Assembly (NCBI RefSeq): GCF_058153355.1
Contig: NZ_CM177019.1
Direction: 5' to 3' (one strand)
DNA: 64,000 nucleotides
Part shown: positions 5,025-28,482 of the stretch, in pieces
Layout: each line of letters starts with the position of its first letter
Numbering within the stretch: position 1 is the stretch's first letter
The notes under the pieces: model-generated
Database searches by the model: none
What the model was told of the DNA's origin: nothing
What the model saw: only the letters and a program-made list of their open reading frames with translations
Made by a program: the position numbers and the translations under genes

Positions 5025-5420
5025 TTACCGAGTTGCTAATTTGCAACTCGCTTTTTCGTACTTACTGATAGTGATCTCGACCTTCCCTTCCGGGATAACC
5101 GGTCCCCACTCCACCAGCATTCTTTTCACCTGACTGTCGTCTTCCCACACACCCGCGTGGGTCAGAGCGTCAAACAGCGCCTTGTTATAGTTGTCCAGAT
5201 CGCGGATCCGGTTATCCGGAGGAAACAACACGATCTCCACTGAAGCAGGTGCCGACGTTGGTTTCGGCAGACGACGTAACTGCTCAACTATTGCTGCGCA
5301 CGCCGCGCTCTGGAATTTGCGCCCCGCCGCGCTTATCAGGCTTTTACCAGCAAACGCCCCTTTGTTAGGGTGTCGCCAGTACGTATTCACGCTGGGCGGG
5401 AAAGGCAGGATCAGTTTCAT
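5025..5420 (-). CDS. rusA: RusA-family Holliday junction resolvase
   Basis: 131-aa ORF with PPSVNTYWRH and RDLDNYNKALFDALT motifs typical of RusA. Confidence 0.75.
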   Translation of the reverse strand: MKLILPFPPSVNTYWRHPNKGAFAGKSLISAAGRKFQSAACAAIVEQLRRLPKPTSAPASVEIVLFPPDNRIRDLDNYNKALFDALTHAGVWEDDSQVKRMLVEWGPVIPEGKVEITISKYEKASCKLATR

Positions 5421-5743
5421 ACTTTCAGGCCTCTCTCATGTAACCAGTGGGTTGCACGCAGCCTTGCGTTTTCCTCACCGGCAAGCAGTGAGCGGATAAT
5501 CCCGACAGCCTCGCTGTCGTCGTCCTTCACCGCGGTATGAAGCGTTATCCCCCGGGCCACGCCACGCTTTATCGTGATGACGCCTTTTTTCTCCAGTGCG
5601 CGAAGATGCTCCACCGCTGCATTCACTGAACGGTATCCCAGCATGGTTGCCACCTCCTGATTGGTTGGCGGGAAGCCACGTTCTTTCTGGTAAGAAATCA
5701 GCATATCCAGCACCTGCTGCTGGCATTGAGTTAATGTCGTCAT
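5417..5743 (-). CDS. LexA N-terminal-type winged-helix DNA-binding protein (no peptidase domain)
   Basis: 108-aa ORF, translationally coupled between the Dam gene and rusA. Confidence 0.45.
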   Translation of the reverse strand: MTTLTQCQQQVLDMLISYQKERGFPPTNQEVATMLGYRSVNAAVEHLRALEKKGVITIKRGVARGITLHTAVKDDDSEAVGIIRSLLAGEENARLRATHWLHERGLKV

Positions 5744-6393
5744 GCCGCCATCTCCCTGACCAGTTTTTCCGCCTGCTGGCGAACCTGCGCCAGAAAGGCC
5801 TCACCACATGCCTCAAGTTCATCGCGCCCGATGTAGCTGATTGCCGGTCCCTTCCAGGTCTTGTCGAAAACAACAATAGCACCAGCGAAGAAAGCGCCTG
5901 TCGGCACCTGCTTCTCGTCCTTCGGTATAAACCAGGCAGGCAGTTCAAAACCAATACGCCCGCGAATAAAAGCAATATGATCTGCATCTTCCGGCCACCA
6001 CACTTCGCTGGTGGCAGCTTTGATCAGGAAAACATAGCGCCCGCCTTTATCACGCATGGCACTGGCATGTTTCATGATGTAACGCATGCCGGTGATGTAT
6101 TGCCCCTCATGCTGACTGGCGCGGCTGTATGGGGGATTACCAAAGGCAGCACCTTTAAGCTCCGCAAGACGTTCTGACCAGTCATGCGCCAGCGCGTTGT
6201 CTTCCGCCGTGTAATACGCGGCACATTTGGCGTTATCACCGTCAGTGAACAGATCCAGAACAAACGGACCAAACAAGGTGTTAATTCCCCAGAAAATGTT
6301 GTCCGGCGTGCGCCACTGATCGCCCACTTCCTTCAGTTCATGGGCTGGTTTGTTCCGCAGTTCTACCAGCGCCTGGCAATATTTATTACTCAT
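5740..6393 (-). CDS. Phage N6-adenine DNA methyltransferase (Dam-like, NPPY motif)
   Basis: 217-aa ORF with FGNPPYSRA motif. Confidence 0.7.
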   Translation of the reverse strand: MSNKYCQALVELRNKPAHELKEVGDQWRTPDNIFWGINTLFGPFVLDLFTDGDNAKCAAYYTAEDNALAHDWSERLAELKGAAFGNPPYSRASQHEGQYITGMRYIMKHASAMRDKGGRYVFLIKAATSEVWWPEDADHIAFIRGRIGFELPAWFIPKDEKQVPTGAFFAGAIVVFDKTWKGPAISYIGRDELEACGEAFLAQVRQQAEKLVREMAA

Positions 6394-6485
6394 TAAGCCC
6401 CCACGTAAAAAGCATCCGCAATGTCTCCGGAAGTACAGCCCGGATGGGCTTCAATGAATTTCTGAACGTCATTTAACAGACTCAT
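6393..6485 (-). CDS. Small ORF (30 aa) between replication gene and Dam gene
   Basis: Manual translation MSLLNDVQKFIEAHPGCTSGDIADAFYVGA; its stop overlaps the Dam ATG (TAATG) and its ATG lies 2 nt after the upstream stop; not in ORF track because short. Confidence 0.25.
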   Translation of the reverse strand: MSLLNDVQKFIEAHPGCTSGDIADAFYVGA

Positions 6486-6487
6486 GA

Positions 6488-7480
6488 TCACCCCCTGAAT
6501 CCTGCCGGGATCTGGCTGTAGTCCACGTTGTCGTAACTGGCTTTGAAGTACGGGTCTTCACGTTTTTCTGTGTGCGTGCTGACGGACGGCGATAAGCGCA
6601 GGGAAAGCTCATCCCATTTTTCCCGCAACTTCGACGGGCTGAGCACGTTACGGCACCAGAACGGATCGCGGCTGACGCGGCTGTACATCTCGCAGATTTG
6701 TTTGTGAGTACGACCATCCTGCACACACATCAGGCGAATTTCGTTTGCCCATGCTGTCCAGTTCGGTTCTTTGGGACGAACCACCTCGCCGTCACATTCG
6801 GCGGCCTGCTCGTACAGGGCGATGATTTTTTTCCAGAGCCACTGTGCGCAGGTCAAATCATCCTGCGTTCCCCACTGGCGCTTTTTAGGGCTGAATACAA
6901 CCGCATCAGGATGGCGAGTTAAAAACTCCTGTTCAGCCGTTTGCGTGTCCGGTTGCGAAGCGTCCGGACGAGAAGAGGTTTTATTCTCTGTAGTAATCTC
7001 TGTTGTATTCTCTGTAAGATCATTGGGCCATTTTGACCCGATGACAGCGTGTCGTTTTGAACCAATGGATCGTGTCATTTTGCGCCCATCCATCAGGTCA
7101 CTTTGACCCGATGGAGAAGTGCATTTTGACCTGATGGATTCGTTCACTTTGACCTCTTCTAAAAGCTCACTTTCATAGTTGATCGTGTAGAAGTTGGTCA
7201 TGTCACGCTTCGATTTATTGAGTTGCTCGCGACGCAAAACCCCAAGTGATTTCAAGCTTGCAAATGTGCGTTTCAGAGTGGACTCTGACCAGAACGGAAA
7301 CTGCTCCAGCCACTGTTCTGTCGTGTTATAAACCCAGCGAATTCCGCCATGCTCTGTGCCTGAATTCGTTTCATTCAGCCAGTAATGAAGCTGCTGCAAC
7401 ACAATTGCCTCATTCAGACCAATACGGCATGCAAGATCACGATTTATCACAATGGGCTGGGATGTCATTAACAGGCTCAT
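6488..7480 (-). CDS. Phage replication initiation protein (O-like, iteron-containing) with DnaT-like C-terminal tail
   Basis: 330-aa ORF; C-terminus DYSQIPAGFRG resembles the C-terminus of host DnaT in this same window ([13 protein letters not shown]); internal iterons. Confidence 0.6.
   Translation of the reverse strand: MSLLMTSQPIVINRDLACRIGLNEAIVLQQLHYWLNETNSGTEHGGIRWVYNTTEQWLEQFPFWSESTLKRTFASLKSLGVLRREQLNKSKRDMTNFYTINYESELLEEVKVNESIRSKCTSPSGQSDLMDGRKMTRSIGSKRHAVIGSKWPNDLTENTTEITTENKTSSRPDASQPDTQTAEQEFLTRHPDAVVFSPKKRQWGTQDDLTCAQWLWKKIIALYEQAAECDGEVVRPKEPNWTAWANEIRLMCVQDGRTHKQICEMYSRVSRDPFWCRNVLSPSKLREKWDELSLRLSPSVSTHTEKREDPYFKASYDNVDYSQIPAGFRG
7028..7156. repeat. Iteron array (5-6 direct repeats of ~CAYTTTGACCYGATGG), candidate prophage replication origin
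   Basis: Direct repeats visible at ~7028, 7052, 7098, 7120, 7144 inside the replication gene, as for lambda ori inside O. Confidence 0.6.
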
Positions 7481-7489
7481 GACCGACCT

Positions 7490-7828
7490 CTATTTCCCTG
7501 AATTTACGACGAAACTGTTCGAGCGGACTGAAGCATTCATGTTCATAGCCTTCACGGAGGTAGATAACCCGTTGTGTTTCCGGCTCCCAACGAATGACTC
7601 TGACGGGCACTCCGTAGTGATCTTTGAACCAGCGGTTAACTTGTCGCAAAGGACTGTCTCCTTCTGCCGGTTGAAATCACCCACAGCCCACTCTGCAAAG
7701 CTGTGGGTTACAATTTCCCTGTCACCTGGTACATTCACTGCATAGCAATACTCCACCTTCGCTTTTCCACCCGGTACAGGAAGCGCAATCAGTTGCGAGC
7801 GACGGTAGTGTGTTGTTAAACTGTTCAT
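7490..7828 (-). CDS. Hypothetical phage protein (112 aa), coupled between the YdaT-like gene and the replication gene
   Basis: Start overlaps upstream stop (ATGA); its stop TAG is followed by AGGTCGGTC then the downstream ATG; an alternative overlapping frame (7437..7649) also looks protein-like. Confidence 0.35.
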
Positions 7829-27202: not shown

Positions 27203-27742
27203 ATGTCTTCCAGAGTTTTGACCCCGGACGTCGTTGGTATTGACGCCCTGGTACACGATCACCAAACCGTTCTGGCAAAAGCTGAAGGCGGTGTGGTTGC
27301 CGTATTTGCTAACAATGCCCCGGCGTTTTATGCCGTCACGCCTGCGCGCCTGGCTGAACTGCTGGCGCTGGAAGAAAAGCTGGCGCGTCCAGGAAGCGAT
27401 GTCGCTCTGGACGATCAACTCTATCAGGAACCGCAAGCCGCTCCCGTTGCTGTACCCATGGGGAAATTCGCCATGTATCCGGACTGGCAACCCGATGCCG
27501 ACTTTATCCGCCTGGCGGCGCTATGGGGCGTGGCGCTAAAAGAGCCGGTGACCACCGAAGAACTGGCCTCATTCATTGCCTACTGGCAGGCGGAAGGTAA
27601 AGTCTTTCACCATGTACAGTGGCAACAAAAACTGGCGCGCAGCCTGCAAATCGGCCGTGCCAGCAACGGCGGACTGCCGAAACGAGATGTGAATACGGTC
27701 AGCGAACCTGACAGCCAAATTCCACCAGGATTCAGAGGGTAA
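27203..27742 (+). CDS. dnaT: Primosomal protein DnaT
   Basis: 179 aa from [10 protein letters not shown]; C-terminus ...[13 protein letters not shown]. Confidence 0.85.
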
Positions 27743-27744
27743 CG

Positions 27745-28482
27745 ATGAAAAACGTTGGCGACCTGATGCAACGCCTGCAAAAAATGATGCCTGCCCATAT
27801 CAAACCCGCATTCAAAACGGGCGAAGAACTGCTGGCCTGGCAGAAAGAACAAGGGGCAATCCGCTCCGCCGCTCTCGAACGTGAAAACCGGGCGATGAAA
27901 ATGCAGCGCACCTTTAACCGCTCCGGTATTCGTCCACTGCATCAGAACTGCTCCTTTGAGAACTATCGCGTTGAGTGTGAAGGGCAGATGAATGCGTTAA
28001 GCAAAGCGCGCCAGTATGTCGAAGAGTTTGACGGCAACATCGCCAGCTTCATCTTTTCTGGCAAGCCAGGAACCGGCAAAAACCATCTGGCGGCGGCAAT
28101 CTGCAACGAGCTACTGCTACGCGGTAAATCCGTATTGATCATCACCGTGGCCGATATTATGTCGGCGATGAAAGATACCTTCAGGAATAGCGGTACCAGC
28201 GAAGAACAACTGCTTAACGATCTGAGCAACGTTGATCTGCTGGTGATCGATGAGATCGGTGTGCAGACCGAATCGAAATACGAAAAAGTGATCATCAACC
28301 AGATCGTCGATCGCCGCTCTTCTTCCAAACGCCCAACCGGAATGCTGACCAACAGTAATATGGAAGAGATGACCAAGTTGCTGGGCGAACGCGTGATGGA
28401 TCGTATGCGCCTGGGTAACAGTTTGTGGGTGATCTTCAACTGGGATAGCTACCGTAGCCGGGTAACGGGTAAAGAGTATTAA
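27745..28482 (+). CDS. dnaC: Helicase loader DnaC
   Basis: 245-aa ORF, Walker A GKPGTGKNHL. Confidence 0.9.
   Translation: MKNVGDLMQRLQKMMPAHIKPAFKTGEELLAWQKEQGAIRSAALERENRAMKMQRTFNRSGIRPLHQNCSFENYRVECEGQMNALSKARQYVEEFDGNIASFIFSGKPGTGKNHLAAAICNELLLRGKSVLIITVADIMSAMKDTFRNSGTSEEQLLNDLSNVDLLVIDEIGVQTESKYEKVIINQIVDRRSSSKRPTGMLTNSNMEEMTKLLGERVMDRMRLGNSLWVIFNWDSYRSRVTGKEY

Follow-up and report, generated by a model that had tools for sequence, protein, structure and literature searches.

A lambda-O-type initiator with internal iterons

The window considered here is a stretch of 64,000 nucleotides (nt) of contig NZ_CM177019.1 (assembly GCF_058153355.1), and the gene at issue, at 6488-7480 on the minus strand within a prophage, encodes a replication initiator of 330 residues. 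The product, labelled 'hypothetical protein' in RefSeq (WP_000054957.1), has the C-terminal end ...SYDNVDYSQIPAGFRG (DYSQIPAGFRG), and a closely similar end is found in the host preprimosome protein DnaT, encoded in the same window. Genes nearly identical to it occur commonly among prophages and phages of E. coli and Shigella, e.g. SfII, SfIV and mEp460-like, where they are variously annotated as 'O protein', 'DNA replication protein O', 'primosomal protein I' or 'hypothetical protein'. The features concerned are the following.

6488-7480, minus strand: replication initiator gene of lambda-O type, 330 residues, phrog_391
7151-7480, minus strand: presumed origin-binding N-terminal domain (residues ~1-110), no Pfam family
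7021-7156: iteron array of 5-6 copies at 23-24 base-pair spacing, inside the region coding for the inter-domain linker
~6961-7020: A+T-richer stretch, presumed unwinding element, 60% A+T versus 50% for the gene
6581-6928, minus strand: lambda-O C-terminal domain (residues ~185-300), from homology search
6536-6580, minus strand: residues 301-315, a variable linker that joins the O C-terminal domain to the tail, placed by sequence divergence past ~300
6491-6535, minus strand: YDNVDYSQIPAGFRG, the terminal peptide of DnaT type (residues 316-330), with its core IPAGFRG coded at 6491-6511, from sequence match
6491-6496, minus strand: last two codons, AGG GGG, doubling as a Shine-Dalgarno sequence for a gene starting at the stop codon
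27203-27742, plus strand: host dnaT, 179 residues, tail coded at 27683-27739; NCBIfam equivalog NF002770, E 4e-105
27745-28482, plus strand: host dnaC, 245 residues, 2 nt past the dnaT stop; proposed tail receptor

The match to PHROG 391 ('replication initiation O-like') spans the whole initiator (E 1e-101), and the C-terminal domain is homologous to that of lambda O; searches of Pfam, NCBIfam and PDB sequences (phmmer) with the initiator returned no significant match. An exhaustive search with residues 175-330 found the domain of residues ~185-300 in 2674 representative proteins, lambda O among them (residues 171-273, 76 bits). Most matches in this family stop near residue 300, and the sequences diverge beyond it. 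Relatives retrieved by alignment of the O C-terminal domain were all 97-100% identical copies and offered no diversity. The N-terminal half does not match Phage_rep_O (PF04492), which lambda O and the initiator of locus L106 do match. Since N-terminal domains are known to be exchangeable in this group, the missing PF04492 lowers only membership in the lambda-O type in the strict sense.

An iteron core of ~16-17 nt, ATCGGGTCAAAATGAC, occurs five times at 7027-7135 (at most 3 mismatches) and once more, in a weaker form, at 7138-7154; by chance 0.85 matches are expected per window, and none of 100 shuffles gave six. The original prediction for this stretch, made from the sequence letters, had described an O-like replication protein with its own iteron array at 7028-7156, and both the assignment and the coordinates proved accurate. 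By analogy with lambda ori, whose iterons are annotated inside O, the A+T-rich stretch is presumed to be the unwinding element. The same N-terminal domain together with the same iterons also occurs joined to other C-terminal modules (L100, L143, L313); the origin-binding domain and its iterons are one exchangeable unit, the classical lambdoid arrangement. Within the region coding for the N-terminal domain there are also a palindrome, TTTCAAGCTTGCAA, at 7250-7263 and several weak inverted repeats.

The likeness to the lambda O/P system thus comprises a two-domain initiator, iterons and A+T-rich DNA lying between the parts of the gene that code for the two domains, a homologous C-terminal domain and the same cro-cII-O gene order. 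The window system differs in that the N-terminal domain is not Phage_rep_O, there is no P gene and the protein ends in IPAGFRG rather than in the LDLTNTDWIYGVDL of lambda O; its loader would be host DnaC, not a phage P.

A terminal peptide shared with DnaT

When the initiator is compared with DnaT by BLASTP, SQIPAGFRG aligns with SQIPPGFRG (8/9 identity) at the extreme C-terminus of both proteins, and nothing else is significant. Of all 366 stop-to-stop frames of at least 60 residues in the window, just two end in IPxGFRG, namely the initiator and DnaT. The close match between the two C-termini, already seen in the original prediction, is therefore real. The prediction had also ascribed a DnaT-like C-terminal domain to the initiator, and this part has to be abandoned. 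Neither of the DnaT models, Pfam PF17948 and NCBIfam NF002770, matches the initiator, phmmer against PDB sequences found nothing, and hhalign of the lambda-O C-terminal domain against the DnaT C-terminal domain, with the tails removed, gave a probability of 0.07%; the similarity is limited to the last residues, the very outcome that the prediction had set against its own claim. The N-terminal oligomerisation domain and the acidic PriB-binding linker of DnaT are likewise absent from the initiator, for which BLASTP finds only the tail and whose architecture differs. The similarity is a separate terminal peptide, not a domain.

This peptide is well conserved on both sides. No part of DnaT is better conserved among 164 orthologues than the IPPGFRG core, at 0.91 identity; the DNA-binding domain reaches 0.84 and the preceding linker 0.70. 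Relatives of the initiator retain the tail though the residues ahead of it diverge, as in KSKYECDTRIPEGFRG and NHISEPDTEIPPGFRG. The full terminal module reads R-D-V-N-x-[IV]-S-x-P-D-x-x-I-P-x-G-F-R-G-COOH. We scanned viral contigs for D-x-x-I-P-x-G-F-R-G-stop and obtained at least 120 loci; in 119 of the 120 listed the match is a true C-terminus, nearly always of an open reading frame (ORF) of 180-400 residues, and most listed tails have the extended module R-[DC]-[VP]-N-x-[IV]-S-x-P-D-x-x-I-P-x-G-F-R-G. The 106 listed tail proteins of at least 180 residues fall into 26 clusters. Ahead of the tail these clusters have at least seven different domains, including the lambda-O C-terminal domain, the DnaT C-terminal domain, Phg_2220_C and several without a Pfam family, and the listed proteins have at least four types of N-terminal domain (Phage_rep_O, HTH_36, DUF1376 and that of the window protein). 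Protein-level searches, free of the DNA pattern, recovered the tail in diverse initiators without a loader gene as well. Judged from these sequences, the tail is a portable module that appears to be selected as a peptide.

Tail type and the neighbouring loader gene

Proteins of the lambda-O C-terminal domain family share a few recurring ends that exclude one another: the DnaT type, ...D(W/F)DNTDWAxG... and ...HWNSxEAWE.... Lambda O itself (L008, 387-1286), with its end LDLTNTDWIYGVDL, is a case of the NTDW-type terminal motif. Among the loci listed, the gene that follows the initiator depends on the tail.

DnaT-type tail: DnaC homologue next in 52/89, lambda P in 0/89, neither in 37/89
NTDWA[DE]G tail: DnaC homologue next in 0/43, lambda P in 42/43, neither in 1/43
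HWNxxEAWE tail: DnaC homologue next in 0/100, lambda P in 100/100, neither in 0/100

With the NTDW and HWNxxEAWE tails pooled, a gene of the lambda-P family is next in 142 of 143 listed loci (L215-L398) and DnaC never. Counted as 60%-identity clusters among the matches listed, which are not fully independent of one another, the split is 15/0 versus 0/31 (Fisher p=2e-12). The phage DnaC genes start 2-6 nt past the stop codon of the tail gene, and their products match the DnaC of the window with E-values of ~1e-76 to 1e-80. An early notion that the tail marks phages without a loader of their own, drawn from 0/7 cases, was overturned by the 52 listed loci with DnaC directly downstream.

The partition does not follow the rest of the protein. 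Lambda-O C-terminal domain scaffolds take either tail, each beside the matching loader, DnaC or P, and where the DnaT C-terminal domain is combined with an HWN tail (phiV10-like, 38 proteins among the matches listed), P adjoins. The YdaU protein of Rac-SA53, which ends ...LDCTDWRDD (TDW type), has a short P-family neighbour. Thus, the scaffold does not predict the loader, and swaps are found in both directions on the same scaffolds. As the host DnaB delivered is the same for both types of loader, a contact between tail and loader is the simplest interpretation. For lambda O, the pattern suggests that its extreme C-terminus may be the P-docking element.

The same argument bears on a reading in which the tail binds another protein of the host replisome, be it DnaB itself, the beta clamp or SSB. 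Short C-terminal peptides are typical docking tags for these hubs, and QIPxGF loosely resembles clamp-binding hexapeptides. However, both loader types use the same DnaB, clamp and SSB, so the tail should not switch with the loader. A beta-clamp motif (QIPxGF compared with QLVLGL) was dropped for this reason and because QIP does not keep its Q (SQ, TE, KT and SA all occur), in contrast to clamp-binding motifs. We regard this family of partners as quite unlikely.

The partition likewise bears on the mechanism put forward in the original prediction, according to which the tail mimics a DnaT surface for PriA and/or PriB, so that the initiator would build the PriA-PriB-DnaT restart primosome at the phage origin. 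In its favour, the tail is common to an initiator and a preprimosome protein, and the contacts of DnaT residues 154-179 are not described in the available structures: the 2026 preprimosome structures place DnaT's C-terminal domain (84-153), linker and N-terminal domain and do not discuss residues 154-179 (PMC13377028). Yet in these cryo-electron microscopy (cryo-EM) structures the contacts with PriA and PriB are made through the DnaT C-terminal domain, fitted with the 84-153 crystal structure, and through the acidic linker, not through the tail (PMC13377028), and the initiator has neither that domain nor that linker. Moreover, binding to PriA or PriB gives no reason for the tail to partition by DnaC-type or P-type loader, nor for a phage dnaC to follow directly after it. 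With the tail co-varying with the DnaC versus the lambda P loader over ~230 listed phage loci, primosome recruitment through PriA/PriB is not the best reading, and we consider it very unlikely.

The prophage of the window belongs to the group without a loader of its own. From cro to Q it has no helicase, P-like or DnaC-like gene, and tblastn found no P homologue; the 39 kb of SfII examined and the complete SPN1S genome have neither a helicase nor a loader gene. What we describe is a single-protein replication module of lambda-O type, the initiator of which carries a DnaT-type terminal peptide. Other phage initiators with this tail are those of the Rac YdaU/YdaV type and the SPN1S/epsilon15 type ('primosomal protein I'), which differ from the window protein in having DUF1376 or other N-terminal domains and the DnaT C-terminal or other middle domains. 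A DUF1376-type YdaU-like cluster (L133) has a phage DnaC next door, and in SPN1S the tail initiator stands alone. We found no biochemical study of these initiators in the literature.

E. coli DnaT-DnaC, a replication-restart protein and a helicase loader encoded in one operon, resembles the phage systems in the terminal core IPxGFRG-COOH, and many phage relatives have the tail gene 2-6 nt 5' of dnaC with AGG GGG as the ribosome-binding site. The window protein differs from DnaT in lacking the DnaT N-terminal domain, the acidic PriB-binding linker and the three-helix domain that binds single-stranded DNA (ssDNA), and in presumably recognising a sequence-specific origin, where the DnaT system acts at a PriA-marked fork. 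The domesticated lambda O/P-like pair DopC/DopE (Brezellec et al. 2017, PMC5509034) also presents O-like initiators, the DnaT C-terminal domain and loaders as exchangeable modules, the loaders being phage-derived; there, however, the similarity is at the domain level (DnaT_C in DopC, with a P-like loader beside it), and a terminal peptide linked to loader type is not described (PMC5509034).

The junction between tail gene and dnaC is compact. In 27-28 of the 28 unique junctions where dnaC follows (loci L095-L214, among the matches listed), the final codons are AGG GGG; AGG is a rare Arg codon, and the same six bases code for the C-terminal Arg-Gly and provide the dnaC Shine-Dalgarno sequence. 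The host dnaT-dnaC junction (27736-27747) reads AGA GGG TAA CG ATG. It could be argued from this that the tail is kept mainly at the nucleotide level, as the AGGGGG that couples translation of a mobile dnaC cassette, and that it is a leftover in phages without a loader. The near-invariance of AGG GGG when dnaC is next, despite the rarity of AGG, and the AGGGGG of the window, which precedes a truncated ORF starting at the stop codon, agree with such a reading. However, the freezing is limited to the two terminal codons; at the eight remaining codons of the motif, including those for D, I, P, G and F, synonymous variation is free, and the conserved module spans ~20 residues. In loci without dnaC, R and G are retained with the codons CGG/CGC and GGA/GGC/GGT, and, as stated above, the tail is recovered in diverse loader-less initiators at the protein level. 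Because the other codons vary and R and G persist without dnaC, selection appears to act on the peptide, with a ribosome-binding-site constraint on its end, and a purely nucleotide-level explanation is highly improbable.

The truncated ORF of the window, VIMSLLNDVQKFIEAHPGCTSGDIADAFYVGA, comprises 32 codons at 6393-6491 on the minus strand, with GTG/ATG at 6491/6485 and AGGGGG as its ribosome-binding site. RefSeq treats it in strain 13E0780 as an incomplete pseudogene. In SfII a PerC-family gene occupies its position, so a deletion has probably taken place here.

The distribution of the tail among hosts is narrow. A scan with one genome per species gave at least 120 genome loci, 80 of them titled, and the taxonomy rests on those 80. 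All genuine tails are from Enterobacterales (66/66); the other 14 of the 80, from other phyla, are chance matches without an ORF. Each host dnaT with enough flanking sequence is followed by dnaC, among the matches listed. To our knowledge, DnaC is confined to Enterobacterales among the gamma-proteobacteria, and the taxonomic spread of the tail fits dependence on DnaC. The same confinement is attributed to Brezellec et al., as far as their work is cited in PMC5509034. Aeromonas phage pAEv1818 (L399, 1889-3561) encodes an initiator with a DnaT-type domain and a degenerate tail, ...EKPPGFN, followed by its own DnaC homologue, which has a separate ribosome-binding site; tail and loader are possibly a divergent pair here, in a host order believed to have no DnaC.

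As for its surroundings, the initiator lies in a lambdoid early-right operon in the order cI-like repressor, cro-like gene, cII, small ORF and initiator, followed by the truncated ORF and the genes for a Dam methylase, a protein with a LexA DNA-binding domain, RusA, KilA-N, DUF968 and Q. A small DUF4222 gene (7437-7649, minus strand) overlaps the start of the initiator by 44 nt; such a gene also lies directly 5' of initiators with unrelated tails in L006 and L007, so that replication modules of this sort may share it as a conserved accessory. Directly downstream of the initiator is the phage Dam methyltransferase gene (5740-6393, minus strand). Further downstream, a 108-residue protein (5417-5743, minus strand) has the LexA DNA-binding domain only, without an S24 peptidase domain, and could interfere with SOS regulation. 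In E. coli 13E0780 (L522) the same prophage replication region lies by zur and a truncated dihydrouridine-synthase gene. As other E. coli strains have the prophage region elsewhere, the proximity of the initiator to dnaT-dnaC in the window is a coincidence.

A candidate docking signal for helicase loaders

Of the explanations considered, we favour, as rather probable, a docking of the initiator through its tail to host DnaC, as part of the DnaB6-DnaC6 complex, at the opened origin. According to this scheme, the N-terminal domain would bind the iterons and the neighbouring A+T-rich DNA would open, while the C-terminal half would bring the host helicase DnaB to the origin, which in lambda is achieved via binding of the phage loader P by O. 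With the lambda-O C-terminal domain kept and the last ~15-30 residues swapped for a DnaT-type peptide, the flexible terminal peptide would become a docking tag for DnaC-family loaders. The tail would then tether host DnaC, within DnaB6-DnaC6, to the opened origin, and the phage would need a single replication protein. In DnaT, the same peptide would recruit DnaB6-DnaC6 to the PriA/PriB/DnaT preprimosome. The sequences show what the gene and the origin are, that the tail is portable, that it co-varies strictly with the loader type and that a phage loader is missing; the physical contact between tail and DnaC, as well as its functional consequence, we infer. A short conserved docking peptide after a flexible linker is experimentally established in the C-terminal tail of SSB, with its acidic tip ...DDDIPF. 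The comparison is an analogy only; the SSB sequence and its partners are unrelated to the DnaT-type tail, whose docking is predicted.

Structure prediction is supportive of such docking. In the fusion that we modelled with AlphaFold2, using operon-paired sequences, a 30-residue Gly-Ser linker joins DnaC to the last 26 residues of DnaT. With 28 paired sequences, the mean predicted local distance difference test (pLDDT) score was 76 for DnaC, ~34 for the linker and ~85 for the last ~11 residues (with no control peptide and no predicted aligned error, PAE), and the DnaC model agreed with 6QEM chain G at a template modelling (TM) score of 0.77. In this model DSSP assigned a beta-bridge to R300 and new isolated bridges to T110, in the Walker-A loop, and to residue 234. 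Such features may be read as the signature of a predicted docked peptide. Residues Q81, A84 and A88 of DnaC are invariant over host and phage DnaC homologues that are ~50% identical. The DnaC1331 substitution (A84Y) blocks the PriA/PriB/DnaT pathway (PMC11087952). The DnaC surface at Q81/A84/A88 is a candidate for the tail-binding surface.

An activity of the tail on DNA has to be weighed here too. With its aromatic F and basic R, the tail might serve as an arm that binds ssDNA and helps to keep hold of the unwound strand, in DnaT filaments as well as at the opened phage origin, and its link to DnaC would then be indirect. A likeness to RGG-like nucleic-acid-binding motifs can be seen in GFRG. 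In the experiments of Liu et al. (2014), DnaT 84-179 bound dT30 ~2.7-fold better than 84-153, and the cooperativity of DnaT fell without the C-terminus (PMC4132743). Nevertheless, a generic arm should not be swapped for the acidic and aromatic DWDNTDWA or HWNSPEAWE exactly when the loader is P, and the strict position at the extreme C-terminus together with the invariant I-P-x-G-F suggests a protein pocket; AlphaFold, moreover, puts the tail on DnaC with pLDDT ~85. An arm of this kind therefore seems unlikely.

Several points weigh against docking to DnaC, besides the gain in dT30 binding. The pattern scans forced the amino-acid motif, so that the counts are samples, taken from the matches listed, and the clusters at 60% identity are, as noted, not fully independent. 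The tail of the window protein (DYSQIPAGFRG) is itself a shortened variant, with D-x-x-x-I spacing and the RDVNxxSEPD part missing, and lay outside what the pattern scan sampled. Physical linkage within a 'tail + dnaC' cassette could lie partly behind the co-variation, since the ribosome-binding site of dnaC coincides with the final two codons of the tail. The AlphaFold2 fusion was judged without a scrambled-peptide control, PAE or coordinates, and with 18 paired sequences DnaC was poorly modelled (mean pLDDT 58, tail <50). A 2024 study states that no binding of DnaC to PriA, PriB or DnaT has ever been demonstrated (PMC11087952), and the 2026 preprimosome paper suggests DnaT's N-terminal domain as the recruiter (PMC13377028).

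The original prediction saw the phage initiator as borrowing from DnaT. A conserved, selected peptide is indeed common to both proteins, so this much of the idea can be kept; the direction, however, is more likely from phage to host. The transfer may have run this way because the tail occurs on many phage scaffolds, 2-6 nt from a phage dnaC just as dnaT is from dnaC, and because dnaC and the loaders are regarded as phage-derived (PMC5509034).

More tentatively, and with slightly less than even confidence, we propose a 'loader code' in which IPxGFRG docks the DnaC family, and NTDW and HWNxxEAWE, including the NTDW-type end of lambda O, dock the lambda-P family. IPxGFRG would then be the missing DnaB6-DnaC6 recruiter of DnaT, possibly acting at the surface altered in dnaC1331 (A84Y), and dnaT-dnaC would be a domesticated phage initiator-loader pair. 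Genes such as the one described here are common and of a known kind; the link between terminal peptide and loader type, along with its implication for DnaT, appears to be new. Within the literature that could be searched, the motif string does not occur, and we found nothing relevant on 'DnaT-like' phage proteins or on YdaU/YdaV function.

How DnaT recruits DnaB/DnaC, that is, how PriA/PriB/DnaT hand over to DnaB6-DnaC6, has been called unknown in a 2018 review (PMC5778457), in the 2024 biochemical study (PMC11087952) and in the 2026 cryo-EM work (PMC13377028), and the lambda O-P contact is structurally unresolved (PMC12661323). The pattern reported here nominates a specific peptide of 7-20 residues on the DnaT-DnaC and lambda O-P sides. 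If true, it would explain how a large class of prophages common in E. coli and Shigella (SfII, SfIV, mEp460-like, SPN1S-like) replicates with one phage protein and would offer a simple annotation rule, by which phage replication modules are divided into DnaC-dependent and P-dependent ones. It also suggests a peptide-pocket interface on DnaC as a possible target.

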